From contig CALAUG010000032.1 of assembly GCA_937892155.1 (NCBI GenBank), positions 1,517 to 65,516 of the forward strand: 64,000 bases of DNA. The letters are read 5' to 3'. The notes beneath the pieces were generated by a model. It was not told the DNA's origin. It saw only the letters and a program-made list of their open reading frames with translations, and made no database searches. Within the stretch, counting starts at the first letter, position 1. Each line of letters begins with the position of its first letter. Shown piece after piece: positions 8,039 to 63,255 of the stretch. Made by a program: the position numbers and the translations under genes. Source of the DNA: an uncultured Bacteroidales bacterium. Lineage in GTDB: Bacteria; Bacteroidota; Bacteroidia; Bacteroidales; UBA1715.

Positions 8039-8992
8039 ATGGACGCTTTAACAAAAACAAATTTTAATTTTCCAGGGCAAACAAGCGTGTACAACGGCAA
8101 AGTTCGTGACGTTTACAGCATTAACGACGACATTCTTGTAATGGTGGCAACCGATCGTATTTCGGCATTTGACGTTATTCTTCCAAAAGGAATTCCATAC
8201 AAAGGTCAGATGTTGAATCAAATTGCGTCAAAATTCCTTGATGAGACAAAAGACATTTGTCCAAACTGGAAACTTGCAAATCCAGACCCAATGGTAACAG
8301 TTGGTTTAAAATGCCAAGGATTTCCTGTAGAAATGATTGTTCGTGCTTATTTATGTGGTAGTGCTTGGAGAGCATACAAAAGTGGCGTTCGTGAACTTTG
8401 TGGTATTAAATTGCCAGAAGGAATGAAGGAAAACCAAAAATTTCCAAAACCAATCATCACTCCTACTACAAAAGCCGAAATTGGAGAACACGACCAAGAT
8501 ATTTCAAAAGAAGAAATTTTAAAACGAGGACTTGTTTCAAAAGAAGATTACGAGGTATTGGAAAAATACACTATGGCCTTATTTGAAAGAGGAACTGAAA
8601 TCGCAGCTAAACGCGGATTGATATTGGTTGACACTAAATATGAATTTGGCAAAAAAGACGGTAAAATCTATTTGATAGACGAAATCCACACTCCCGATTC
8701 TTCCCGCTACTTCTACGCAGAAGGTTACGAAGAACGCTTCGCAAAAGGTGAAGCACAAAAACAACTTTCAAAAGAATTTGTTCGTGAATGGTTAATGGAG
8801 AACGGTTTTCAAGGTAAAGAAGGACAACAAGTTCCAGAAATGACTCCACAAATCGTAACATCAGTCAGCGACCGTTACATTGAATTGTTTGAAAACATAA
8901 CGGGCGACAATTTCGTAAAGAACCGTGGAAGCGAAGGCGATATAGCCGATCGTATCCGCAAAAATGTTGAGAACTATCTCAAAACAATCTAA
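8039..8992 (+). CDS. purC: phosphoribosylaminoimidazole-succinocarboxamide (SAICAR) synthase
   Basis: [16 protein letters not shown] and LVDTKYEFG motifs; long (~317 aa) form. Confidence 0.9.
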
Positions 8993-9065
8993 TACAAGTT
9001 TCTGATGTCGGTAGTTGGTTGCCATAACTGACTACCGGCAACTGAAAACAGATAACTCACCTCCA

Positions 9066-10064
9066 ATGCAAAAAAATCTCGTCGGCACGCAATACACCTA
9101 CTCTTTTGATTTCGTCCTCCCTGACGAAAAAGAGATGCAAAACGACGATTTGGGGTTGTTGTTCCACGGAAAATGCCTACAAACAGGAGCATCGGTAATT
9201 GTACGATATATTAGGAACAAACAACTCATAAAAAGTACCCAACATTTACAATTAGTACGACAAATTTTTCTCGGACTCAACCAAATACACCAAGGTATTG
9301 TACAAACATACGACTGTTTAATTGACGAAGATGGGCTTTATTTCATCCGTGAAGAATTAATTGGTGCCGATTTACAACAGATTGCATTTTCTGGAGATTA
9401 TCCGCACTTACGCAATCAAAAATTCATACTGAAAGTTGGCAGCAAAGTTTGTGAAATTTTAACGGAATTACATAGAAACAAAATTATCAACAGAAGAATA
9501 CAGCCGAGCAATATTTTTTTGGTAGCCAACGATTTAGGACAAATTGACGTAGACAACCCAACCGTAAAATTGCTAAATTTGGAATATGCACAAATCAATG
9601 GTCAAAACATACTTGGGTTTCAAACTATTCCCTACGCAAAATATTATTCCTCGCCAGAGCAAGTTTTACAATGCGGCGTATTAGTAAATGAAACCAGCGA
9701 CATTTACAGCTTAGGAATGACGTTGAATGAATCAATTTCACGCGAACACGTATTTGACAGCGAGAAAGACGACAACAATCTGATACTCAACACACAAGTA
9801 TCTTTTCCATTACATAGGCACCACCGCGTGGATAAAAAAGTATTTCCTCTTTTGTTAAAAGCAACAAGTAAACATATATTCAAAACGCCACCAATGCGTT
9901 ACAATAAAGATTCACGTCTACGTTATTTTTGGAATGCACAAAAGATGAGATATCAGTCTGCAAGTGAAATGCAACAAGCATTAGATGCACTCATACAGGA
10001 ATTGCCAGATGAAAAAGAAAACAAAATCCTAACGAAATTCAAATCGATATTTAGAAGAAGCTAG
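9066..10064 (+). CDS. Hanks-type Ser/Thr kinase-like protein, predicted catalytically dead
   Basis: Kinase subdomains are recognisable (YSSPEQ = APE, SDIYSLGMTL = subdomain IX). However VAIK is VIVRYI, HRDxKPxN is NRRIQPSN, and DFG is NLE. Confidence 0.7.
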   Translation: MQKNLVGTQYTYSFDFVLPDEKEMQNDDLGLLFHGKCLQTGASVIVRYIRNKQLIKSTQHLQLVRQIFLGLNQIHQGIVQTYDCLIDEDGLYFIREELIGADLQQIAFSGDYPHLRNQKFILKVGSKVCEILTELHRNKIINRRIQPSNIFLVANDLGQIDVDNPTVKLLNLEYAQINGQNILGFQTIPYAKYYSSPEQVLQCGVLVNETSDIYSLGMTLNESISREHVFDSEKDDNNLILNTQVSFPLHRHHRVDKKVFPLLLKATSKHIFKTPPMRYNKDSRLRYFWNAQKMRYQSASEMQQALDALIQELPDEKENKILTKFKSIFRRS

Positions 10065-10080
10065 GAAACTGGATTAAAGA

Positions 10081-10107
10081 AAAAAAGCCGAATTTCTTCG
10101 GCTTTTT
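10081..10107. terminator. bidirectional rho-independent terminator
   Basis: GCCGAA (10087-10092), loop tttc, TTCGGC (10097-10102), flanked by an A-run and a T-run. Lies between convergent genes. Confidence 0.65.
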
Positions 10108-10135
10108 CATTTATACATTAAACATTACGCATTCA

Positions 10136-11428
10136 TTATTTTACCTCTACCAAGAAATAATTTTTCTTACCTCTTTGTAGTAAAATATATGCATCGTTCA
10201 ATATTGATTCAGTAGAAATCACCATTTCAAACGAATCTAATTTCGTTTTGTTGATACTCACGCCACCACCTTGAATATTCTTACGAGCTTCGCCTTTACT
10301 TGCAAACACATTCGTTTTTACCGCAAGTAAATCAAGAACTGGGATACCAGCATTTATTTCGTCCTTTGAAACTTGGAACAAAGGAACTCCTTCGAATACA
10401 GACAAGAAGGTTTCTTTATCGAGTTTTTTCAACGAATCGGCAGTAGCATTTCCAAATAAGATATTAGAAGCTTCTACGGCAGCTTCGTAATCTTCCTTGC
10501 TATGAACCATTGTCGTAACTTCTTGAGCAAGACGTTTTTGCAATACGCGCAAATGAGGAGCTTGTTCGTGTTCAGCAATCAAAGAGTCAATTTCTTCTTT
10601 TGGAAGCATTGTAAAAATCTTGATATATCTCTTGGCATCGTCATCGCTTACGTTCATCCAGAATTGGTAGAATTTGTATGGAGATGTGTAGCGACGATCC
10701 AACCAAACATTACCACTTTCGGTCTTTCCAAATTTGCCACCGTCGGCTTTTGTAATCAACGGACAAGTCAAAGCAAAAGCTTCAGTTCCGTTCATACGAC
10801 GAATTAATTCCATACCTGTTGTGATATTTCCCCATTGGTCGGAACCACCCATCTGCAGCTTACAGTTTTTATGTTCGTTCAAATACACGAAATCGTAACC
10901 TTGAAGAAGTTGGTATGTAAATTCCGTAAAACTCATTCCGTCAGAGCATTCGCCATTGAAACGTTTTTTCACAGAATCTTTCGCCATCATATAATTAACG
11001 GTAATCAACTTACCAACATTACGGGCGAAATCAAGGAATGTGTAATCCTTCATCCAATCGTAGTTGTTCACCAATTCCGCCGCGTTTGGCGCATCGCTAT
11101 TAAAATCAAGGAAATGTTCCAACTGAGCTTTAATACAAGAAACATTATGTGCAAGTGTGGCTTCATCCAACAAATTACGTTCTTTTGATTTTCCCGAAGG
11201 ATCACCAATCATTCCAGTTGCACCACCAATCAATGCGATTGGTTTATGTCCACAACGTTGAAAATGACGCAACATCATCACACCGCACAAATGACCAATA
11301 TGTAAAGAATCGGCAGTTGGATCAATACCCAAATAAGCCGTTGTCATTTCTTTCGCAAGTTGTTCCTCGGTTCCTGGCATGATGTCGTGAAGCATGCCTC
11401 TCCATTTCAATTCGTCAATAAAATTCAT
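10136..11428 (-). CDS. tyrS: tyrosine--tRNA ligase
   Basis: HIGH motif (SLHIGHL), KMSKS-type KFGKT, and a C-terminal S4-like domain. Confidence 0.95.
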
Positions 11429-30653: not shown

Positions 30654-30929
30654 GATTTTGGAAGACAAAAGTTAGAAGTAAAACAGACTCGAAAAAATAT
30701 CTCGGTAATAGGAGGAACAATACCTACAATATCGCAAGAAAAAATAATGAATTATGCATTGCCATTATCATCGGTAGATGTACAAAGACAGATAAATTCA
30801 TTCATTGAAAAAAAATGTGAGCCAATTGATGCAGCAATAAAAAATCAAAAAAAACAAATAGTTCTTCTTCAAGAACGTAAACAGATATTGATAAACGAAG
30901 TGGTAACAGGTAAAGTGAAGGTATTATAA
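30654..30929 (+). pseudogene. hsdS: type I restriction specificity subunit (HsdS) C-terminal remnant
   Basis: The frame is open from 30654 (…ISVIGGTIPTISQEKIMNYALPLSSVDVQRQINSFIEKK...LQERKQILINEVVTGKVKVL). This gives the end of a target-recognition domain plus a conserved C-terminal coiled coil. The N-terminal ~300 aa are missing. Confidence 0.6.
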
Positions 30930-30945
30930 TTAAAATTTAACAAAT

Positions 30946-31986
30946 ATGATAAAGCATATAGAAATACAAGGTTTAAATGGTAATAGAGGTGATAGTTTGG
31001 TTTATGACTTTAACAGTGATTTAAATATTTTTACTGGACAAAATGGGTGTGGTAAAACAACATTATTAAAAATATTATGGTATATATGTAGTGGCAATAT
31101 TAATTGTTTGCTACAAGAAGTAGTATTTCACTACATAAAATTAGAAACAGATAAGCACAAATTTGAAATTGGTCAAGTTAACGGTAAATTTAAAATTCAA
31201 ATTGACGATAATGTTTTCACCCCAACTCAAGAGGCAATATCTCTAAGAATACAGATAAGAGAATTTTGCAAGAATTTCGCGGCAATATCAGGGAAAACTT
31301 TATTTTTTCCAACTTTTAGAAGAATTGAAGGTGGATTTTCAATGGGAATGCAAGAGATGGGAATTTCGCAATCTACAGTGAATGATTCACTAAGAAAATT
31401 GTCAGATTCATTGTCTTCTGAAAATCATAAATTTATAGCTTCTGTATCTACGAATGATATTGAAAACTTATTAAAGTTTGAGTACGCAGATATATCAAAA
31501 TATTTAAATGATTTACAAAAAAATCAATTTAGCAAAATTAGACATCTAATCAAGAATGGAAAGACTTCAAAAGAAAATAAGTTAAACCAAATAGAGCAAG
31601 AAATTGCAAAAACTGATGAGTTGTTTCAAGAAAAACTACAACCCTTTTCAGTTCTTGACAAACACGTAAAAACAATATATAAAGATAAAGGTATAAATGT
31701 TTCTCCTTTAGTGTTAGGAAACGAAACAAAACCTATCGTTTCTGATAAATTGTCTGCGGGAGAAAAACAAATGTTGAGTTTTTTGTGCTATAATACATTT
31801 TATCGTGATTGTATTATTTTTATAGATGAACCAGAACTAAGTTTGCATATAGATTGGCAAAGAAAATTAATACCCGTTTTAGTAAATCAACGTTCAGGAA
31901 ATCAATTCTTTATAGCAACACATAGTCCTTTTATATATTCTGTTTATCCAGATAAGGAAATAATATTGGACAGAGATCAAAAGTAA
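30946..31986 (+). CDS. ABC/SMC-like AAA ATPase, PARIS AriA-like
   Basis: Walker A GQNGCGKTT, signature-like LSAGEKQMLSF, Walker B IIFIDEPELSLH, and H-loop IATHSP. Followed after 5 nt by a DUF4435-like gene. Confidence 0.7.
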   Translation: MIKHIEIQGLNGNRGDSLVYDFNSDLNIFTGQNGCGKTTLLKILWYICSGNINCLLQEVVFHYIKLETDKHKFEIGQVNGKFKIQIDDNVFTPTQEAISLRIQIREFCKNFAAISGKTLFFPTFRRIEGGFSMGMQEMGISQSTVNDSLRKLSDSLSSENHKFIASVSTNDIENLLKFEYADISKYLNDLQKNQFSKIRHLIKNGKTSKENKLNQIEQEIAKTDELFQEKLQPFSVLDKHVKTIYKDKGINVSPLVLGNETKPIVSDKLSAGEKQMLSFLCYNTFYRDCIIFIDEPELSLHIDWQRKLIPVLVNQRSGNQFFIATHSPFIYSVYPDKEIILDRDQK

Positions 31987-31991
31987 TAAGC

Positions 31992-32726
31992 ATGAAAACG
32001 TACACAAAAAATGAGATTATTGCTATAATAAATCATTCATATTCGCCTGTTATTCTAGTAGAAGGGAAAGATGACAAAATGATATATAGGTTGATATTGG
32101 AAAGTTTAGGTTTCGAAGATGCTATTATTTCAACCTCGGGTTGTAATCTCTTAAGAGAAATTTATAAGGAGAAAGATAAGTTAACAAACAAAAAGGTCAT
32201 TTTCATAACAGATAAGGATATGTATGTTTATTCTAATATTCCTAAACAATATGATGAAATCATATTCACGAAAGGTTATAGTATCGAAAATGATTTGTTT
32301 CAAGGTTTCTCTTTTCTAAATTTTTTTAAAAATAAAGATAATGAGAGGTATAAAAAAGCACTTAAATCTTTCCTTTGCTATTATGCTTGTGAATTCGAAA
32401 AATTCAAAAATGGTGAGGAATATAAGTTAGATTTAAGTCCTTTTCAAATTTTAAACCATAAGGATGGTAGTTTTAAGTTGTTGACAAACAAACTGCAATC
32501 ATACAAGGCACCACGTCATGGGACAATTGAATATCTAGAAAAAGATTATGACTTATTAATTCGTGGTCATTCATTGTTTGCATTATTACACATGATATTA
32601 TCGTTTAAAGGTCGTACTCCAACGTATAAAGAAAATCAAATATATGAAATGTGTTATTCCTCATATAAAAGTCAAGCTATAAAAGATTTAGAGGCGACAA
32701 TTAAGGAAAGGTATTCAAAATTATGA
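31992..32726 (+). CDS. DUF4435/Toprim-like nuclease, PARIS AriB-like
   Basis: Toprim-type acidic motifs are present: ILVEGKDD (E24) and FITDKD (D73xD75). Size ~244 aa, tightly linked to the ATPase. Confidence 0.6.
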   Translation: MKTYTKNEIIAIINHSYSPVILVEGKDDKMIYRLILESLGFEDAIISTSGCNLLREIYKEKDKLTNKKVIFITDKDMYVYSNIPKQYDEIIFTKGYSIENDLFQGFSFLNFFKNKDNERYKKALKSFLCYYACEFEKFKNGEEYKLDLSPFQILNHKDGSFKLLTNKLQSYKAPRHGTIEYLEKDYDLLIRGHSLFALLHMILSFKGRTPTYKENQIYEMCYSSYKSQAIKDLEATIKERYSKL

Positions 32727-32812
32727 TTAATTTTATTTCATCAGACGAACGGGCATTCGAAGCATTAATAGAAAAAAACTTTGTGGGCAGTAAAACAACG
32801 TGGTTTATCTGA
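32723..32812 (+). pseudogene. 29-codon remnant of a gene start (probably hsdR N-terminus), copy A
   Basis: MINFISSDERAFEALIEKNFVGSKTTWFI*. It is homologous at DNA and protein level to 34791-34863, and overlaps the stop of the preceding gene. Confidence 0.4.
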
Positions 32813-32884
32813 AATAAGTATGCGACTAAGAAGAAGCAAGGATAGGAAAATTAGAAAGCTGGAGGGTTGCAAATAAAAAAATAC

Positions 32885-32892
32885 TATTTTTG
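32885..32892 (+). promoter_or_regulatory. candidate Bacteroidota -7 promoter box (TATTTTTG)
   Basis: Matches the TAnnTTTG consensus, 28 nt upstream of the ATG at 32920. Confidence 0.3.
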
Positions 32893-32919
32893 CAATTAAA
32901 GTAGTAAAAGTTCATTGTT

Positions 32920-34188
32920 ATGAAATTGAAAATCTCAAATCTCGGCCCTATTGATTCAATGGTAATCGATATGTCGAAACCTTTTTTCCTTTTTGCTGGC
33001 GACAATAGTACGGGGAAGACGTATGCCGCAACATTCCTTTACACTTTAATCAAAGTAATTTCCTTCTATATAGATCCTCGTGGCCTACATGAAATACAAA
33101 GAATTGAAAACAATATTGAAGGAGAATTGAATGCCGATGAGTTATACGATGCTCTAGATGAATTGCTCAAGAATCGACAGGAATACATTCTAAAGTACAT
33201 GAATTTGAGTATTCCAGCAGATTCGTTTAAATGTGTAATTGTAACCTCAAGAAAAGAATGGAAAGAGGAATTGTTTAAAAAATCGGTATCTGTTTGGTCT
33301 AATTATATCGTAAAAAAAACAAATTCCTACGGGTATCATCTTGAATTGCATGTAGCGGGCGAAAGTTATCTGTCGTTGGCGCAATCTTGGATGATAACTT
33401 CTTTGTTTTTTGATGGTATTATTGGAGCTCAGATGTTTACTGCAGAACGTAGTGGAATCTATACTTTCAGCAAGGAATTGTCCGTGGGACGACTTAGAAA
33501 CCCTGATGAACGACTCAATGCTCGATACCCAAGACCAATTGCGGATGGATTGGCGGATGCGGCTGATTTGGCGAATAAAACGAAAAACACTTTTAGAAAT
33601 GGCGCTTTTGCTGAAGAAATTGAAAACATGATTTTGCATGGCAATCTTACTGTTTCTGAAGAAGGTGAGGTTTTGTATCACGTTTCTAATGGTACTGAAC
33701 TCGGGTTCAATGAATCATCATCAGCTATCAAAACTTTGGCTCCATTGGTGTTTTATTTACGCCATTCTGCTGGTCAGTACAACATTCTATTTGTGGATGA
33801 ACCGGAGTTAAACCTTCACCCGAAGAATCAAATACTATTGGCTAGGATCTTCGTTAAGATGATAAATGCTGGATTGAGGTTGGTTATCAGTACCCATAGC
33901 GACTACATCATTCGCGAAATCAACAATATGATTATGGCGGATGGATTGGATAAAGCTAGTGACAAGATTTTGATGGAAAAAGGATATGACAAAAGTCTAT
34001 GTTTGTCGCAAGACAAATTTGCACCCTATCTATTTGAAAAGAATACCAAAGGAAAAGTGAGGGTTACTCCGCTTGAGGTGGATCGATATGGATTCAATAT
34101 GCCGTCTATCGATGATGCCATTAATAATCAGAATGAAGTGACGAACACCTTTTATGAAGTTTTGAAATACGACCACTCAAACGACTAA
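32920..34188 (+). CDS. ABC-type AAA ATPase (AAA_15/AAA_21-like)
   Basis: Walker A GDNSTGKTY, Q-loop-like FTAERSG, signature-like SSSAIKTL, Walker B ILFVDEPELNLHP, and H-loop STHSD. Confidence 0.8.
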   Translation: MKLKISNLGPIDSMVIDMSKPFFLFAGDNSTGKTYAATFLYTLIKVISFYIDPRGLHEIQRIENNIEGELNADELYDALDELLKNRQEYILKYMNLSIPADSFKCVIVTSRKEWKEELFKKSVSVWSNYIVKKTNSYGYHLELHVAGESYLSLAQSWMITSLFFDGIIGAQMFTAERSGIYTFSKELSVGRLRNPDERLNARYPRPIADGLADAADLANKTKNTFRNGAFAEEIENMILHGNLTVSEEGEVLYHVSNGTELGFNESSSAIKTLAPLVFYLRHSAGQYNILFVDEPELNLHPKNQILLARIFVKMINAGLRLVISTHSDYIIREINNMIMADGLDKASDKILMEKGYDKSLCLSQDKFAPYLFEKNTKGKVRVTPLEVDRYGFNMPSIDDAINNQNEVTNTFYEVLKYDHSND

Positions 34189-34191
34189 GTT

Positions 34192-34782
34192 ATGCAATAC
34201 ATTGATTATCTTGAATGGATTCTAAACTCAAATTTCTTGCAAAACGGGAAAGATGCTTTGACTATGATAGAACCAGCAGATGCTGAAAATCCAGAACAAA
34301 GGGTGAATATAAAAATTGCAACCAATGCCATTTCAAGTATGAAACTTTATCGTTTTAACAACCTTACAGAAAATGATAAAGTACTGTTCCCTTTCTTTAA
34401 TCAATCCACAATTGAGCCTACGGCACCACGTGGATTGAACAGTTTTTGTGATTATATATTATTGGTACAGCATGATAACGGTCTGTTTGTTTTTTTCTTG
34501 GAAATGAAGCGTGGTAGACATGAGGATGCAACGAAACAAATTGAAGCATCTTCTTTGTTTTTCGATTATGTTCTTCGTTCTGCGGAACGAATAAAAGAGG
34601 AGAATGGCTCTTCTGATTTTGATGTCAATCAAGTTCAGTATCGTAGGATTGTCATCAATAAAACTTACAGTAATAAGAGGATAACAAAAGACAAAGATAT
34701 TGAAGACTTTGATTTGAACTCAACTATGCTTCATAAATGTTATGATGAATTCCGCCCCATTGCATATTGTAAGCGCAACTAA
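34192..34782 (+). CDS. hypothetical protein with PD-(D/E)xK nuclease-like signature
   Basis: D87 (CDYILLV), 16 residues, then E104-M-K106 (FVFFLEMKRG). The gap from the ATPase gene is 3 nt. No named family recognised. Confidence 0.5.
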   Translation: MQYIDYLEWILNSNFLQNGKDALTMIEPADAENPEQRVNIKIATNAISSMKLYRFNNLTENDKVLFPFFNQSTIEPTAPRGLNSFCDYILLVQHDNGLFVFFLEMKRGRHEDATKQIEASSLFFDYVLRSAERIKEENGSSDFDVNQVQYRRIVINKTYSNKRITKDKDIEDFDLNSTMLHKCYDEFRPIAYCKRN

Positions 34783-34790
34783 ATCAATAT

Positions 34791-34865
34791 ATGGCTATGC
34801 CTTTATCCAAAACCGACGAACAAGCCTTCGAGGCATTAATTGAAAAAGCACTTGTTGGCAGTAGC
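34791..34865 (+). pseudogene. ~25-codon remnant of a gene start (probably hsdR N-terminus), copy B
   Basis: MAMPLSKTDEQAFEALIEKALVGSS. Beyond ~34865 the sequence is the antisense of the 34836..36005 gene. Confidence 0.45.
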
Positions 34866-36005
34866 CGAGTTGAACGTGGAACCCGAAATGCCGTCGCCTT
34901 GCCACGTTCCGCCTGTCGGTGTGGCTTGCAAGGATACAGTTTCACCTTTTGCAATCTCCGAAACGGTTGGTGAAATTTGAACCTCTGTGCTTGGTGCAAC
35001 CGTTACAACACCATTGACGAACGTAACGGTTGGTTCTTCACCATCGCCAGAACCTGTATATTCAAAACTTATAGGCGTAATGTCAGATGTTCCCGATTCC
35101 AACGCCTTGAAACGTAACGTACCAATGTTGCCACCTCTGAATCCTGTTCCATTTCCTATGCTGACAATTGCACTTACCATTCCATTGCCACAATCTTTGA
35201 AACGAACAAAGTTTGATTGGGAATTTACTCCTTCAAGTTGGAGAACAGACGAATTATAGCGTACCGAGAAAAACATACTGTTTACACAATAGCATTCCAC
35301 ATCGGACATTGAAAGTGCGACATCAAAAACATCGTTTTGACATACCGACTTGTTTTCAGCCGAAATAACCATTTCGCATTGCTGCGGTTGTGGGCAGTCG
35401 CCAACAGGAGCGACGTACGGATGCAGACAATTATATGAAACGCACCCCTCTCCGTTTTGGGCACATACAACCATATTTCCTGCAACGCCGTGGAAATCAA
35501 CAACGGCTGTATTGCCACTTTGCGACACCAATGTGTTACCTTCGGGAACCGTCCACGTGAAAGATTGCGCGTTGTTTGCCGTTGCCGTATAAACCACTCC
35601 TTTTTGCTCTAAACATACTGCACCCCAACCTGTTGGACCATCAACAGAAACCATAGTAGGGCGAATGTTCTTTGCTATTTCTTTTATGCTTGTTCGCAAA
35701 ACAGAGTTTCCGTCACGTTCTGTAACACGCAATATAACCGTTCCTGTACCTTCTGTAAAACGAACTGTTACAGAATTCCCTATTGCTGTTTTCGAAGGAT
35801 TAAAATCTGCGCCGCCTTCTATTGACCATTCATATACAACGTTTGAAGAAGATGCTAAAACTTCATACTGCAGGTAATCAATAGAAGAGATTGATTCCTT
35901 ACAATCTGTTGGTAAACCTATTATCTCGAGGTTCTGGGCATACGAACAAACCACCGCCAAAAGTAGTGCGACGATTGTAATTCCTATTTTATTTCTATAC
36001 CTCAT
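34836..36005 (-). CDS. secreted surface protein, cohesin-like and Big-like domains, C-terminally truncated at a rearrangement junction
   Basis: Signal peptide MRYRNKIGITIVALLLAVVCSYAQ. The cohesin-like stretch (FDVALSMSD...FFSVRYNSSVLQLEGV...GTLRFKALESG) is a tentative call. The last 9 codons and the stop are supplied by the antisense of the hsdR-like remnant. Confidence 0.55.
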   Translation of the reverse strand: MRYRNKIGITIVALLLAVVCSYAQNLEIIGLPTDCKESISSIDYLQYEVLASSSNVVYEWSIEGGADFNPSKTAIGNSVTVRFTEGTGTVILRVTERDGNSVLRTSIKEIAKNIRPTMVSVDGPTGWGAVCLEQKGVVYTATANNAQSFTWTVPEGNTLVSQSGNTAVVDFHGVAGNMVVCAQNGEGCVSYNCLHPYVAPVGDCPQPQQCEMVISAENKSVCQNDVFDVALSMSDVECYCVNSMFFSVRYNSSVLQLEGVNSQSNFVRFKDCGNGMVSAIVSIGNGTGFRGGNIGTLRFKALESGTSDITPISFEYTGSGDGEEPTVTFVNGVVTVAPSTEVQISPTVSEIAKGETVSLQATPTGGTWQGDGISGSTFNSATANKCFFN

Positions 36006-36018
36006 TGTTTTTCTTCTT

Positions 36019-38424
36019 TTATCTCACCACAACTTTTTCTATTTGTGTTCCGCAATGCACAAAATACGTACCCGATGGCATGGAAACATTATTTTGCACC
36101 TTTTGCCCTGCCACATTGTATATTGCATATTCCTCACAACTGCATTCTATTTTTCCGTTTACAACACGGATTTGAATATCATCTGCAGAAACAGGGTCTA
36201 TGGCACTGCCCCCATTGTTTACTATAAACTCTTGGCTTTGCACTGTTTCAAATATTTCATCGTCTTCTGGCACTACTTTTATTATATAATTTGCTTCTAT
36301 GCTTTTCGGTAATGTTATAGAAAATGGTTCTCCCGATTTTATTTCTATTTTTTCATTTACTACAATAGAAGAGCCATTTACTTGTTCCACCAAAACCTTT
36401 GCGGTATAAGTTTGATTATCTGCATTGCTTATGGAGCATTGGATTGTGCCGTTTTCTTGCTTTTCAAATGAATATTCTAAGGTTTTTACCTTACGAATAC
36501 CTTTATATATTCTAAGCATATTACCAATGGTGGGAATTCCATAAATTACATTATTGTCAGCCTTTGAAATTTTTTCAATAGGTGGATATTGTGAGACACT
36601 CTCTTCATACCATGTTTCTCCACCATCTATGGAAACAAGTACTGTATCATTGGGATAATCCAGAGCATCTGACAATGATGGAATTACCAACGTGTCTTTA
36701 GAATAAACCAACAAAGTTGAATACGTATACGCAGGAGCATAATACTCACTCCCTTGCCAAACCTTTTTGAAATTGTATTCAGTAGTATCGCAAGTATATA
36801 CATGTCCATTAATTCTATCCATCAATATCCATTTCCCATCATGAAAAGCCGTGTTAATCCAAGCAATTCTATTTACGTTATCTTCAGAAACAAGCGAAAA
36901 TGTCAACCTTTTTTCAGAATTAACGTTTGCCAATAATATTGTCTTTGAATCATCATTTGGGAATAACCCAATATGCTTGTTTGCAAAGCAACCGTTTGCT
37001 AAATCTCCACCATAATTGTAAAAATCCATACTGATGTTGAATATATTCTCCCACGTATTGCCACCATCGAGGGTTTGAAATAAATCTATGTCATCATAAA
37101 CATATCCAAAACTTTCTGTGAAAAACTGCATATTTCTCGCTATTGTTCCCGATAACATGTTCATATTTTTCCCAACCCACGATTCACCGCCATCTCGAGA
37201 TATGAACAAACTATCTGTACTTGTCATATATATAACATCATTAGGGAAAAACTGCATCTTGTATAATGTGGTATTGAAATCTTTGTAATCCCATGTTTTA
37301 CCGCCATTTGAGGAATAAAACAACCTACCATTTTTTGTACCTATTATAAAAATCTCGTTCTTGGATTTTACGAATATGTCTTTCCCTTCCATGTTCCCTT
37401 TGTATATATATGAATAACGAGTGTTATTTAGGGCTGTGGTTGTCACATCTGTGGGTGGTGTGTATGTTTCTTTTGTAAACTGCCATGTCCGCATACTATC
37501 AGTGGATATTATTTTATTATTATCAATATCATATCCTCCCGAAACAGTAGCCCAAACCTTACCGTTTCCTAAATCATACATAGACTTGGGAACATTATAA
37601 TATGCAATAACACCATTACCCCAATCATACATGTTTATTATTCGACAACGTTCCAATGTTTTGCTTATTTGACTTGATACAGTTAAAATAATGTATCCGT
37701 TTTCAAATTGAAACAAGTGTTTTGGTGTAATTCTAAGTTGTTCGGCTTTCCATGTCATTCCGCCATCTTTTGTCACACTATAGCCTACATTTGCAAAGAC
37801 ATATCCTAACTGATTGTTTACAAACGCCATATAAAAAGTTTTACTTTGTGGTAAAACTTCTTGGGAAAAAACATCATTTGTTGTCAAAGCCCATTTTTCT
37901 CCGTAATCTGAACTTTTATATATGGCAACTTTGTTTGAACTCGTGTCAAGCACAGTCAGAAACACGGTTTGTTCATCGCTCCATGCCGTTGTAACAATTT
38001 TATCAGATTCTTTCAACTCTAACAATGAAGAAGTCCACGAATTGCCACCATCTACAGTGTAAAGCACGTTGTTAATATATTTTCCATTTTCGTTAGATAC
38101 AGAAGCGAAAATTCCGTGAAGAGAATCTTTGGCAAATTTAAATGCCAAAGGTTGATATGAAACTTCATCTAATTTTGTAATTACATCTAACTTTTGCCCC
38201 TTTAGACTATATGTTTGTTCCCATGTCTTTCCCGTGTCAGATGACATTGCAAGCCAGCCTTCTTTTGTAGCAACGACAACATTTCCACCTTTTGTACTCA
38301 CAGATTGAGCAATTGTCATACTGAAATCGTCTGGGGTAATATCTTTCCATTCATACTCAAATATTTGAGAGTATAGTACACACGACATTATTGTCGTGAT
38401 AAATAAAGCGACAATCTTTTTCAT
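36019..38424 (-). CDS. T9SS-secreted BNR/Asp-box beta-propeller repeat protein
   Basis: At least nine Asp-box motifs (SSDTGKTW, TVDGGNSW, SSDYGEKW, TKDGGMTW, SSNGGKTW, SRDGGESW, TLDGGNTW, SIDGGETW and others) and a C-terminal sorting domain (IYNVAGQKV...GTYFVHCG...KVVVR). Confidence 0.8.
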   Translation of the reverse strand: MKKIVALFITTIMSCVLYSQIFEYEWKDITPDDFSMTIAQSVSTKGGNVVVATKEGWLAMSSDTGKTWEQTYSLKGQKLDVITKLDEVSYQPLAFKFAKDSLHGIFASVSNENGKYINNVLYTVDGGNSWTSSLLELKESDKIVTTAWSDEQTVFLTVLDTSSNKVAIYKSSDYGEKWALTTNDVFSQEVLPQSKTFYMAFVNNQLGYVFANVGYSVTKDGGMTWKAEQLRITPKHLFQFENGYIILTVSSQISKTLERCRIINMYDWGNGVIAYYNVPKSMYDLGNGKVWATVSGGYDIDNNKIISTDSMRTWQFTKETYTPPTDVTTTALNNTRYSYIYKGNMEGKDIFVKSKNEIFIIGTKNGRLFYSSNGGKTWDYKDFNTTLYKMQFFPNDVIYMTSTDSLFISRDGGESWVGKNMNMLSGTIARNMQFFTESFGYVYDDIDLFQTLDGGNTWENIFNISMDFYNYGGDLANGCFANKHIGLFPNDDSKTILLANVNSEKRLTFSLVSEDNVNRIAWINTAFHDGKWILMDRINGHVYTCDTTEYNFKKVWQGSEYYAPAYTYSTLLVYSKDTLVIPSLSDALDYPNDTVLVSIDGGETWYEESVSQYPPIEKISKADNNVIYGIPTIGNMLRIYKGIRKVKTLEYSFEKQENGTIQCSISNADNQTYTAKVLVEQVNGSSIVVNEKIEIKSGEPFSITLPKSIEANYIIKVVPEDDEIFETVQSQEFIVNNGGSAIDPVSADDIQIRVVNGKIECSCEEYAIYNVAGQKVQNNVSMPSGTYFVHCGTQIEKVVVR

Positions 38425-38428
38425 AGCA

Positions 38429-38860
38429 TTAATTATTTTGGTTGTTTTGACAATTAGTTTGCTCCAATATCAGTTCTGCCAATCTATCAATATCGGCATT
38501 ATTGACAACGCCGTCTTTATTTATATCGGCATTATCAAGAAAACAACCATTAAGCGTATAGGTTGTTCCGCCACAATTAGTCTGAATTGTTATCGTAAAC
38601 CCTCCATCAGAAGAAGGTTGTAATGTTGCGCCCTCTTGTACATATCCTTTCAGAGCGTCTAAATCTTCCAAAGAATAACCGGGCTTACCATCTATTCGAA
38701 TCGGACGTTTCTCGTCTTGTGCATTATACTCCTCCTCTTTTATAAAAACACCCGAAGAGAATGATGTTGGTACGGTGTTGTGTACCATTCTAAAAATCAA
38801 AGGACTTTTGTTTTCCTTGTTTCTGTACCGAGAATCCAATACCAAATTGATTGTAGCCAT
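38429..38860 (-). CDS. chimeric ORF: tyrosine-integrase Arm DNA-binding domain remnant fused to a dockerin/EF-hand-like loop
   Basis: The N-terminus MATINLVLDSRYRNKENKSPLIFRMVHN...SSGVFIKEEEY resembles Bacteroidota integrase N-termini, and no catalytic domain follows. The C-terminus carries DINKDGVVNNADIDRLAELIL. Confidence 0.45.
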   Translation of the reverse strand: MATINLVLDSRYRNKENKSPLIFRMVHNTVPTSFSSGVFIKEEEYNAQDEKRPIRIDGKPGYSLEDLDALKGYVQEGATLQPSSDGGFTITIQTNCGGTTYTLNGCFLDNADINKDGVVNNADIDRLAELILEQTNCQNNQNN

Positions 38861-39032: not shown

Positions 39033-39045
39033 TTGTCTATCAATG

Positions 39046-39118
39046 AGCGGGAAACGAGACTCGAACCCGCGACCCTTAGCTTGGAGGGCTAATGCTCTAC
39101 CAACTGAGCTACTCCCGC
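39046..39118 (-). tRNA. tRNA-Gly (anticodon UCC)
   Basis: Hand-folded cloverleaf: acceptor GCGGGAG/TTCCCGC, D arm GCTC/GAGC, anticodon stem TTAGC/GCTAA with loop CCTCCAA, T arm GCGGG-TTCGAGT-CTCGT. Position 33 reads C. CCA is not encoded. Confidence 0.8.
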
Positions 39119-39120
39119 AT

Positions 39121-39204
39121 TGGTGGGAGTGGGTGGACTCGAACCACCGAAGTCATAGACGGCAGATTTACAGTCTGCTCTCGTTGCCGCTGGAGAACAC
39201 TCCC
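39121..39204 (-). tRNA. tRNA-Tyr (anticodon GUA)
   Basis: Acceptor GGGAGTG/CACTCCC, anticodon loop CTGTAAA, long variable arm, T arm GGTGG-TTCGAGT-CCACC. CCA is encoded. Confidence 0.85.
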
Positions 39205-39208
39205 TAAG

Positions 39209-39282
39209 AGCCTCTTGTCGGATTCGAACCAACGACCCCGAGATTACAAATCACGTGCTCTGGCCAACTGAGCTAAAGAGGC
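39209..39282 (-). tRNA. tRNA-Thr (anticodon UGU)
   Basis: Acceptor GCCTCTT/AAGAGGC, anticodon loop TTTGTAA, T arm GTTGG-TTCGAAT-CCGAC. Confidence 0.85.
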
Positions 39283-62037: not shown

Positions 62038-63255
62038 TTACACCAGCTCTCCGCTAAACGCTTTTTTCAGAATGCTCTGCCTCAATGCCTCGGCTTGTTG
62101 CAACGATTGTTCGATGCTGGCTTCGACAAGCTCAGCCTGCGACAATCGGGTTTCGATTTCTTGGACTATACGTTGCTGCTCGGGAAGAGACGGAAGGGGA
62201 AATGGGATTTGTTTAATAATACCAATGTTTAAAACATCCATCGTTGTCCCACTAGCATTGATTTTGTAAAAAGATTTCACTTTAGAACTTTCAAAATAAT
62301 ATTTGAAAAATTTTGCATCATAGATTTGTTGGTTCAAAGTTATCTTTATTAAACGAGGATTTATAATTCCTTCTTTAACACCTTTAGGAAGTATTAAAAC
62401 CTTACCTACAGTACCAACTAGACTAATCAAAATATCACCTTCCTGTATTTTACAAGATTCAAGTTCTTTATATTTAGTCTCATCAACATAATAATTACCA
62501 ATAAATGGATTACCATTTATAACCTGCTCTTGACCATATATTTTATATCCTTTTTCGACATAACAATCTTTTTTTAATGCAGATCCAAAAGGTCCTGCTT
62601 TTAAAGCATTTTTCCCCTTTTCTATTATATCAATAATATTTACAATAGGCCATTCTTGTTTAGTCAAGCAATCATTCAGCACCGCTTGCCTATAAACTTT
62701 TAATTGTAGCTGTGCGGTTTTCAGTTTTTCCACGCCTTTGTCCAACTCGGCAAAGAGGGATTCTATACGGGTTACTATGGCGCGCTGGGTAGCGAGAGGG
62801 GGAAGAGTTACTTCATATTCTTTCAGCCACTCCGTACTCATATTTTTCTGAGCAATTCCTTTTGAAGAGTCTATACAATCTTTTTCAAAAGAATCAGTAT
62901 TAAATAAATGAAATAAATACTGCAAAGAAACAAGGCTTTTGTCTTTTACCCGAAGACATCCAACTCGCTGATTTAATGCAGCAGGAAGAAGTTCTTCATT
63001 CAAAATCCCCACTCGTCCGACATTTCCCGTTAATGAAATCAATAAATCACCTTTCTTCAGAACATATTTTTTCAGTTCTTCTTGTGTTTCAATCGGATAA
63101 AATTGTGGTTCTTCGTCAATTACAAAACCTTTTTTGACATTTGTAATTCTAATAACTCTCAATCCATCAGAAACATAATTAGAACTCTTGAATGCAAAAC
63201 CATTCAAGATATCACATATTTCGCCGAGTTTGTATGTTGGATAAGAGCTATTCAT
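62038..63255 (-). CDS. hsdS: type I restriction-modification system specificity subunit
   Basis: Two target-recognition domains are separated by conserved helices (LPPLATQRAIVTRIESLFAELD; LPSLPEQQRIVQEIETRLSQAE). Confidence 0.85.
   Translation of the reverse strand: MNSSYPTYKLGEICDILNGFAFKSSNYVSDGLRVIRITNVKKGFVIDEEPQFYPIETQEELKKYVLKKGDLLISLTGNVGRVGILNEELLPAALNQRVGCLRVKDKSLVSLQYLFHLFNTDSFEKDCIDSSKGIAQKNMSTEWLKEYEVTLPPLATQRAIVTRIESLFAELDKGVEKLKTAQLQLKVYRQAVLNDCLTKQEWPIVNIIDIIEKGKNALKAGPFGSALKKDCYVEKGYKIYGQEQVINGNPFIGNYYVDETKYKELESCKIQEGDILISLVGTVGKVLILPKGVKEGIINPRLIKITLNQQIYDAKFFKYYFESSKVKSFYKINASGTTMDVLNIGIIKQIPFPLPSLPEQQRIVQEIETRLSQAELVEASIEQSLQQAEALRQSILKKAFSGELV

Follow-up and report, generated by a model that had tools for sequence, protein, structure and literature searches.

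The stretch of DNA analyzed here (the window, 64,000 nucleotides) comes from an uncultured Bacteroidales bacterium of the UBA1715 lineage (assembly GCA_937892155.1, contig CALAUG010000032.1, positions 1,517 to 65,516). The subject is a pair of adjacent genes on its forward strand. The product of the open reading frame (ORF) at 32920–34188 is called A, and the product of the ORF at 34192–34782 is called B. Judged from its sequence, the pair is a divergent Bacteroidales member of the PD-T4-4/WonAB-type anti-phage family, and it lies in a decayed type I restriction-modification (R-M) locus. On the best explanation as a whole, the two genes very probably form an anti-phage module that belongs to the PD-T4-4 family and is composed of an ATP-binding cassette (ABC) ATPase and a restriction-fold nuclease.

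The family assignment comes from PADLOC. A matches the PD-T4-4_A model PDLC04033 with an E-value of 9.5e-62 (207.7 bits), residues 1–412 being aligned with positions 1–455 of the 460 positions of the model. A also matches PDLC04032 (1.9e-40). B matches the PD-T4-4_B model PDLC04037 (4.5e-13), with residues 3–177 on positions 5–168 of 190 (86% of the model), and three more PD-T4-4_B sub-models match B at weaker E-values. The second-ranked PADLOC matches are the candidate models PDC-M47A and PDC-M47B. A profile of the B family collects 601 clusters at 50% identity (E ≤ 1e-3). Because PDLC04037 is matched by 69 of 70 diverse members of this family (best E-value 6.8e-45), the B family found here and PD-T4-4_B of PADLOC are one and the same.

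PADLOC is the only sequence library searched that names B. Pfam recognizes A as AAA_15 (6e-23) and AAA_21 (1e-12), and the NCBIfam matches of A are all below threshold. B matches nothing in Pfam or NCBIfam. In a permissive Pfam scan of the 70 B-family members, two weak PDDEXK_9 matches and one weak AHJR-like match are seen. A matches unannotated phage ATPase families in PHROGs, where B matches none. In a search of PDB sequences, A matches only UvrA, weakly, and the B profile finds nothing even at E ≤ 10, so that no relative with a solved structure comes from this search.

PD-T4-4 was obtained by functional selection from E. coli ECOR58, was validated, and is listed as "ATPase, nuclease" with two coding sequences in 1973 bp (Vassallo et al. 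2022). Its founder proteins in ECOR58 are RCO57999.1 and RCO57988.1 (Vassallo et al. 2022). Later papers describe it as a P-loop/ABC ATPase with a PD-(D/E)xK nuclease. The authors of the work on WonAB consider PD-T4-4 similar to WonAB (PMC12137116), the proteins of which (AWB73975.1 for WonA and AWB73976.1 for WonB) belong to the WASA-1 prophage of Vibrio cholerae. The preliminary description, which was made from the letters of the window, had taken the pair as unnamed, B as a protein of no recognizable family, and the architecture as outside any named system. These statements are refuted by the PADLOC matches of both proteins. The pair does score as an already named system, an outcome that the preliminary description itself had listed as refuting it, since the models match both A and B and PD-T4-4 has been validated in E. 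coli.

The relation to the Escherichia type is distant. A tblastn search of plasmids with A finds Escherichia and Klebsiella plasmids with an ATPase gene followed by a gene for a hypothetical protein of ~200 amino acids (aa). From this search, a pair on a plasmid of E. albertii was taken as a stand-in for the ECOR58 founder. It represents the Escherichia type because it scores 2.2e-258 on PDLC04032 and 5.2e-107 on PDLC04035. A is 33% identical to the E. albertii A protein over the C-terminal 207 aa (E-value 4e-26), including the extension behind the H-loop. The B-family profile is aligned with the E. albertii B protein by hhalign with a probability of 95.6% and an E-value of 1.3e-8. The matched positions are CDYIL with CDLVL, ELK with DQK, and QL.AS with QLENS, corresponding to D, (D/E)xK, and Q. 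In tblastn searches of the plasmid and phage collections with B and with a Methylobacter homolog, nothing was found. The window pair appears to represent a distant sister subclade (04033, 04037) of the Escherichia type (04032, 04035).

Two plasmid-borne copies of the Escherichia type illustrate its carriers. One is located on the 4.8 kb Col plasmid pSCU-105-5 of E. coli (L022, 1352–3350), and the other on a conjugative plasmid of E. albertii (L023, 2089–4171). On tiny Col-type plasmids of E. coli, much of the cargo consists of such a pair. Small Klebsiella plasmids also give ATPase matches. The plasmid-borne pairs are annotated just as "AAA family ATPase" and "hypothetical protein".

Both ORFs of the window are full-length in comparison with homologs: A has 422 aa against 422–429, and B has 196 aa against 194–197. 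The coordinates, the strand, and the 3-nt spacing of the two ORFs are as first described, and the operon spans 1863 bp. Database relatives of A number 3611 at E ≤ 1e-5, one of them being an identical sequence (P0078). Because of these relatives and the 601 clusters of B, A and B are real and conserved genes, intact and not chance ORFs. As for transcription, promoters of Bacteroidetes deviate from the sigma-70 consensus. Within 32727–32919, TATTTTTG alone matches TAnnTTTG, and it could be a −7 box. A canonical −33 TTTG was looked for upstream of A and was not found.

The two genes are linked wherever they were followed. Thirteen loci (L001–L013) from species-representative metagenome-assembled genomes of rumen or gut Bacteroidales were retrieved through B, with a close set of 15 B sequences as the query. 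Each of the 13 has a homolog of A immediately upstream of B. Four more distant homologs of B (28–36% identity) were located in eight places, in Fibrobacter sp., Bizionia (Flavobacteriia), and metagenome contigs. In seven of the eight, a gene for an AAA_15/AAA_21 protein of 459–464 aa is directly upstream and overlaps B by 4 or 8 nt. In the eighth, a 1.5-kb contig (L018), the upstream product is truncated and its family is not on record. Over all eight places, the overlaps range from 4 to 13 nt. The same layout, A and then B, is seen on the E. coli and E. albertii plasmids. These genes are obligate neighbors, as the preliminary description had proposed to check.

In one locus (L010, 6859–7976), the homolog of A is disrupted. 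Two tblastn segments and an ORF of only 250 aa are seen there, and B and hsdR are intact. This homolog is probably a pseudogene.

A contains the full motif set of an ABC ATPase: GDNSTGKT (residues 27–34), FTAERSG (173–179), SSSAIKTL (266–273), ILFVDEPE (289–296), LNLHP (297–301), and STHSD (324–328). All of the motifs quoted for A at the outset are thus present. Across 44 aligned homologs with identities as low as 36%, the invariant residues are G27, G32, K33, T34, R177, G179, S267, K271, D293, E294, P295, E296, P301, T325, H326, and S327. A175 and E176 are conserved in at least 90% of them. The AlphaFold2 (AF2) model of A is confident, with a predicted local distance difference test score (pLDDT) of 85.6 and a predicted template modeling score (pTM) of 0.86. 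With this model, Foldseek ranks the retron Eco8 effector and the Septu/retron PtuA first, and the heads of Rad50 and SMC come after them (E-values 7e-10 to 1e-7, probability 1.0). The template modeling scores (TM-scores) are 0.33–0.40 only, which reflects differing inserts. These matches confirm the ABC fold of A, an ABC ATPase of the OLD/PtuA class.

The region between Walker A and AER177xG, residues 46–165, is hypervariable. Its conservation is 0.35–0.67, against 0.8–0.94 in the core. Across 11 close loci, the insert is 36–70% identical and the ATPase core is 86–99% identical. Based on the literature on ABC-ATPase inserts, residues 46–165 are likely a fast-evolving sensor insert. The C-terminal extension is the part of A whose identity tracks the identity of B best, although the correlation (r = 0.70, n = 11) has two influential points and is suggestive only. 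This tracking agrees with an AlphaFold3 model of WonAB, in which WonB sits on WonA's dimerized C-terminal extensions. The identities of A and B to their counterparts can be discordant: 71% for A and 91% for B in L001, and 84% for A and 63% for B in L006. The mosaic of A and these discordant identities suggest that the insert has recombined or has diversified rapidly.

B carries D87 in the motif CDYILLV and E104 and K106 in FLEMKRG. The three residues, which had been singled out as a restriction-endonuclease signature at the beginning, are invariant in 28 homologs. When 70 B sequences with identities as low as 23% are aligned, no columns but D87, E104, K106, and Q116 are invariant, and E27 is conserved in at least 90%. 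The AF2 model of B is also confident, with a pLDDT of 88.2 and a pTM of 0.87. In this model, D87 opens the strand 88–94, the ExK motif closes the strand 97–106, the helix 113–134 carries Q116, and the strand 148–157 comes next. As modeled, this order corresponds to the beta-beta-alpha-beta part of the restriction-endonuclease core. B is well supported by motif and topology, though not proven, as a small divergent PD-(D/E)xK nuclease of the restriction fold. The literature speaks of a "novel version" of the fold, which matches the case of B.

How the pair may work can be considered from its relatives. PD-T4-4 protects E. coli from phage (Vassallo et al. 2022). EcPD-T4-4 forms a higher-order complex, and in vitro it cleaved not one of the 11 DNA substrates offered to it. 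Defense by WonAB requires both genes and both active sites. Mutations of K34, R182, E300, or H333 of WonA abolish defense, and K71A of WonB abolishes both defense and toxicity. WonAB takes effect once the phage has started to replicate its DNA, through an abortive infection that is independent of lysis, and it inhibits translation while genomic DNA is left intact. Overproduction of WonB is toxic, but only with WonA present and active as an ATPase. As the target, the authors of the work on WonAB suggest rRNA or tRNA.

By analogy, A would dimerize head-to-head around two ATP sites, and its insert (residues 46–165) would sense infection. The A dimer would offer its C-terminal extension as the docking site of B. 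Upon infection, the binding or hydrolysis of ATP by A would license B, and the nuclease, with D87, E104, K106, Q116, and possibly E27 as predicted catalytic residues, would stop phage development. The outcome would be abortive infection with a shut-off of translation, and the target would be a structured RNA (tRNA or rRNA) rather than bulk DNA. The assembly of a complex, its activation gated by ATP, the abortion of infection, and an RNA as the target are all inferred from relatives, and the RNA target is to be taken as possible. The functional reading in the preliminary description holds: A is an ATPase of the OLD/PtuA class, B has a conserved D...ExK...Q, the two genes are obligate neighbors, and defense genes are nearby.

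The setting of the close relatives is mostly the same. Sequence of hsd adjoins the pair in 12 of the 13 Bacteroidales loci, and in 9 the pair is between hsdS and the sequence of an hsdR start. The hsdR start is ~12 nt after B in relatives. An intact hsdR of 1046–1060 aa starts at the same place after B in 10 loci (L001–L004, L006–L008, and L010–L012), except that the copy in L011 is cut off by the edge of the contig. The order in L002 is HsdS, an ApeA-like HEPN protein, a 1233-aa protein, A, B, and a 1060-aa HsdR just after B. Other cassettes at the hsdS-hsdR junction match PDC-S58/ApeA and PDC-S31. A setting among defense genes had been anticipated, and it is found: relatives adjoin hsd, ApeA-like, PDC-S31, AbiTii, and CBASS genes, and the window pair adjoins a PARIS-like pair.

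This position could mean that the pair is a guard similar to PrrC, which is held inactive by the Hsd complex and fires when an anti-restriction protein of a phage disables Hsd. The adjacency to hsd described above speaks for such a guard, the interval between hsdS and hsdR being the classical position of prrC in EcoprrI. Also in its favor, DNA seems to be left undegraded by relatives, for which RNA has been proposed as the target. It is nevertheless improbable. Distant members are located outside hsd, in Fibrobacter, in Bizionia, and near CBASS and AbiTii (L014–L016), and the pairs of the Escherichia type work from small plasmids or an integrative and conjugative element (ICE) without hsd. In the window, only remnants of hsdS and hsdR are left, yet both ORFs of the pair are intact. 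The junction also hosts unrelated cassettes (ApeA-like, PDC-S31, and PARIS-like), so a hotspot of recombination fits better than a partnership.

In the window itself, decay has left little of the type I R-M system that formerly enclosed the cassettes. A fragment of HsdS is left, with no hsdM or intact hsdS upstream. It is followed by a PARIS-like pair, which is a separate system. The first ORF of that pair (346 aa) matches AriA models (8e-28) and AAA_21, and the second (244 aa) matches AriB (4e-11) and DUF4435. Two remnants of the 5′ end of hsdR are present, and they also align to each other as DNA. Each cassette, the PARIS-like pair and the PD-T4-4-like pair, directly precedes one of these hsdR starts. 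The preliminary description had placed the pair behind a PARIS-like pair, with a remnant of one and the same gene start on either side. Both observations stand, and the remnants are now recognized as type I hsdR 5′ ends. The guanine-cytosine (GC) content is 0.28–0.29 in the PARIS-like pair, 0.38 in the PD-T4-4-like pair, and 0.37–0.43 in the surroundings of the PARIS-like pair. The low GC content suggests that the PARIS-like pair was acquired more recently than the PD-T4-4-like pair.

The decay raises the question of whether the window copy is a non-functional relic. Of the flanking hsdS and hsdR, truncated remnants are all that is left, the homolog of A is disrupted in L010, and only a weak promoter-like box precedes A. 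Against a relic, both ORFs are full-length, every invariant catalytic residue is kept, and an identical A protein is on public record (P0078). A relic is as improbable as the guard.

A duplication of the hsdR start is seen in L001 as well (8603–8662 and 10119–10199), around a different cassette, a 468-aa gene. The duplicated hsdR starts can be inferred to be scars of cassette turnover by recombination at the hsdS-hsdR junction. It can be speculated further that the Bacteroidales clade of PD-T4-4 resides in a hotspot at this junction, that cassettes are swapped there through the 5′ end of hsdR, and that the pair perhaps also serves, in the manner of PrrC, as an RNA-targeting back-up when R-M is inhibited. 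This combined proposal is rather unlikely, though somewhat less so than a guard or a relic. The cassettes of such a hotspot may include the PD-T4-4-like, PARIS-like, and ApeA-like ones, PDC-S31, and the ~1233-aa gene.

The reading of the pair as a PD-T4-4-type module with a nuclease has several points to face. Foldseek searches of PDB and BFVD with the model of B give no match at E ≤ 1e-3, with TM-scores of ~0.25–0.30, and Pfam gives no nuclease family for B. In a pairwise comparison, B is only 23% identical to the E. albertii B protein, over a core of 66 residues (E-value 3e-4). The subclade of the window pair fits PDLC04033 and PDLC04037 best, and the Escherichia-type pairs fit PDLC04032 and PDLC04035; protection has been measured in relatives only. 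The surrounding R-M locus has decayed, so that the expression and selection of the window copy are unproven, although both ORFs are full-length. The idea of an RNA target derives from negative DNA results in two relatives. WonB is a protein of ~16 kDa, and B, with 196 aa, has an extra beta-rich part at the N-terminus, so the mechanism can be transferred by analogy only. All of these weigh against the reading proposed here.

The structural points are also what would be expected if B were not a nuclease, with D...ExK having a structural or ligand-binding role in an adaptor, and the ATPase working with another effector. No significant match to a nuclease fold is obtained with Foldseek, PDB sequences, or Pfam, and EcPD-T4-4 showed no cleavage of DNA in vitro. 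This alternative is very improbable, because D, E, K, and Q are all that stays invariant in the 70 divergent sequences, and they are located where a beta-beta-alpha core would have them. At the corresponding site, DxK is found in the Escherichia-type B, an allowed variant of (D/E)xK. WonB K71A loses defense and toxicity. The weak Foldseek matches of B are mostly proteins with PD-(D/E)xK: HamA, BsmI, Shedu, N.BspD6I, Can2, UL24, VRR-NUC, and ERCC4. The assignment of B to the restriction fold is based on the motif, the topology, and this enrichment among the weak matches. The nuclease reading of the preliminary description thus holds for the topology of the core, and a significant Foldseek match is lacking.

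The least probable alternative is a toxin-antitoxin or addiction module that stabilizes the island, with B as toxin, A as antitoxin, and no dedicated anti-phage role: Pfam annotates AAA_21 as "putative AbiEii toxin, Type IV TA system", overproduced WonB is toxic, and the module persists in a decayed locus, but the need of WonB toxicity for WonA and its ATPase rules out simple sequestration by an antitoxin in WonAB, phage protection has been measured for both PD-T4-4 and WonAB, and the hypervariable insert of A fits a sensor in an arms race.

Table 1. Features of the PD-T4-4-like pair, its surroundings in the window, and a recurrent ORF in related loci.
Feature	Position	Strand	Remarks
Gene A	32920..34188	+	422 aa; OLD/PtuA-class ABC ATPase, PD-T4-4_A family member
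Gene B	34192..34782	+	196 aa; predicted PD-(D/E)xK-type nuclease, PD-T4-4_B family member
Possible Bacteroidetes-type −7 promoter box TATTTTTG	32885..32892	+	28 nt 5′ of the start of A; weak, consensus match only
Walker A/P-loop of A, G27-DNSTG-K33-T34	32998..33021	+	K33 corresponds to WonA K34
Hypervariable insert of A, residues 46–165	33055..33414	+	Between Walker A and AER177xG; putative sensor
F-T-A-E-R177-S-G of A, Q-loop position, residues 173–179	33436..33456	+	R177 corresponds to WonA R182
ABC signature (S266–L273) through Walker B (I289–E296; D293, E294) of A	33715..33807	+	E294 corresponds to WonA E300
H-loop of A, S-T-H326-S-D	33889..33903	+	H326 corresponds to WonA H333
C-terminal extension of A, residues 336–422	33925..34185	+	Putative docking surface for B
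Predicted catalytic core of B	34450..34539	+	D87 34450–34452, E104 34501–34503, K106 34507–34509, Q116 34537–34539; sole invariant columns
HsdS C-terminal remnant	30708..30929	+	PADLOC Specificity_I 5e-16; tblastn with L002 HsdS residues 351–423, 49%
PARIS-like pair	30946..32726	+	AriA-like 30946–31986, AriB-like/DUF4435 31992–32726; separate system
hsdR 5′-end remnant 1, 29-codon ORF MINFISSDERAFEALIEKNFVGS...	32723..32812	+	ATG overlaps the stop of the AriB-like gene; tblastn with L002 HsdR N-terminus, 58% over 26 aa
hsdR 5′-end remnant 2 MAMPLSKTDEQAFEALIEKALVGS...	34791..34877	+	Ends after ~30 codons of homology; tblastn with L002 HsdR, 71% over 34 aa
Recurrent 1233–1243 aa ORF	L002 2947–6648; L004 2925–6626; L006 2942–6643; L007 2916–6623; L010 3010–6741; L011 2909–6619		

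The ORF of 1233–1243 aa recurs directly upstream of A within the hsdS-hsdR interval. No Pfam match is seen for the copy in L002, and no PADLOC match for the copy in L004. It may be an embedded defense gene that has not yet been characterized. In L001, the 468-aa gene (8716–10122) is located between B and hsdR, and its C-terminal ~80 residues match CARF/Csa3/CasR-type models of PADLOC (2e-8). In L015 (6278–12136), from a metagenome, the genes that come after a PD-T4-4-like pair are those of AbiTii, of a DUF4062 protein, and of a CBASS operon (patatin, SMODS cyclase, E1/E2, and JAB), which is the setting of a typical defense island.

The preliminary description had placed the pair in a tRNA-linked island, which is not borne out. 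The tRNA cluster at 39045–39282 is 4.2 kb away, behind three surface genes. No integrase and no tRNA-derived repeat of at least 13 nt was found in the window. The possibility of a tRNA-targeted island was rejected on these grounds, the three intervening surface-protein genes being unrelated.

On the reverse strand, the region 34836–38860 encodes a protein with PKD-like and cohesin modules (389 aa), a protein with BNR/sortilin repeats (801 aa), and a protein with a weak, sub-threshold dockerin-like match (143 aa). For a genome of Bacteroidales, the presence of cohesin and dockerin modules is worth noting. Also on the reverse strand, a 405-aa ORF at 62038–63255 is weakly similar to the HsdS of L002 (21% over 317 aa, E-value 4e-6). 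This ORF could be part of another type I R-M system, close to where the window ends.

As a discovery, the pair matters little. The architecture of an ATPase and a PD-(D/E)xK protein and the kinship with WonAB are already known, and standard annotation tools would label the pair PD-T4-4. It extends the PD-T4-4 family to rumen and gut Bacteroidales, with well-sampled natural variants. Studies of sensing and of the substrate of the family could take the hypervariable insert of A and the strict D/E/K/Q core of B as a guide. The locus is also a clear example of ABC-ATPase defense cassettes stacked at the hsdS-hsdR junction, where the duplicated hsdR starts are the traces of cassette turnover. The by-products are of more interest than the pair, namely this hotspot with its duplicated hsdR starts and the ~1233-aa gene of related loci, which is the better candidate for novelty.

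Several known systems share features with the pair. PrrC and RloC are ABC-ATPase abortive modules; the relatives of the pair share the position inside an hsd operon, and an RNA target is suspected for them. However, PrrC is one polypeptide with a fused anticodon-nuclease domain, whereas the restriction-fold protein is separate here, and members of the PD-T4-4 family are also found outside hsd loci. No model named PrrC is among the best 25 PADLOC matches of A. Gabija and OLD differ in that A has 422 aa and no Toprim domain, and the GajA and Old matches cover only residues ~216–339 (1e-9 to 1e-6). The Septu/retron PtuAB and retron Eco8 systems provide the closest solved structures to A, and they have ABC ATPases that control a nuclease. 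The nuclease of Septu, PtuB, is of the HNH type, whereas B has neither an HNH nor a PtuB match, and A matches PtuA weakly (~5e-10, C-terminal part). The effector of retron Eco8 is a fused Toprim, and neither a retron nor a reverse transcriptase accompanies the pair.

PARIS resembles the pair in having an OLD-family ABC ATPase for the sensor and then, as a separate protein, a small nuclease for the effector, and both are located in defense hotspots. The preliminary description had gone further and seen the pair as PARIS with the effector swapped. This is appropriate as an analogy of architecture, and as a family assignment it was rejected, because A scores far better on PD-T4-4_A (9.5e-62) than on AriA, the best match of which is partial (8.5e-24 on residues 227–331). 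B has no match to DUF4435, Toprim, or AriB, unlike the AriB-like neighbor at 31992–32726. A and the neighboring AriA-like protein are alike only at Walker A and from Walker B through the H-loop.

WonAB is closer. It shares an OLD-type ABC ATPase with a C-terminal extension and a small divergent PD-(D/E)xK nuclease, and K33, R177, E294, and H326 of A are the positional counterparts of K34, R182, E300, and H333 of WonA. WonAB differs in being borne by a prophage, and its kinship to the pair is based on the statement on PD-T4-4 in PMC12137116. As cited in PMC12137116, an operon termed "OLD-ABC ATPase + novel REase" (REase, restriction endonuclease) in the 2020 survey of ABC ATPases is a related family. 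SHI83489.1 and SHI83462.1 are an example of it from Anaerovibrio.

The closest system is PD-T4-4 itself. The B proteins differ in having ExK here and DxK in the Escherichia type, and the hosts and sites differ as well, rumen or gut Bacteroidales and a type I R-M junction being found here instead of an ICE or a plasmid. In both, the genes are adjacent and co-directional, with an ABC/P-loop ATPase of ~420–480 aa first and a PD-(D/E)xK protein of ~190–210 aa second. The operon is 1863 bp here and 1973 bp in ECOR58, and the ATPase's C-terminal extension and the core of the nuclease align with those of the Escherichia-type pairs.

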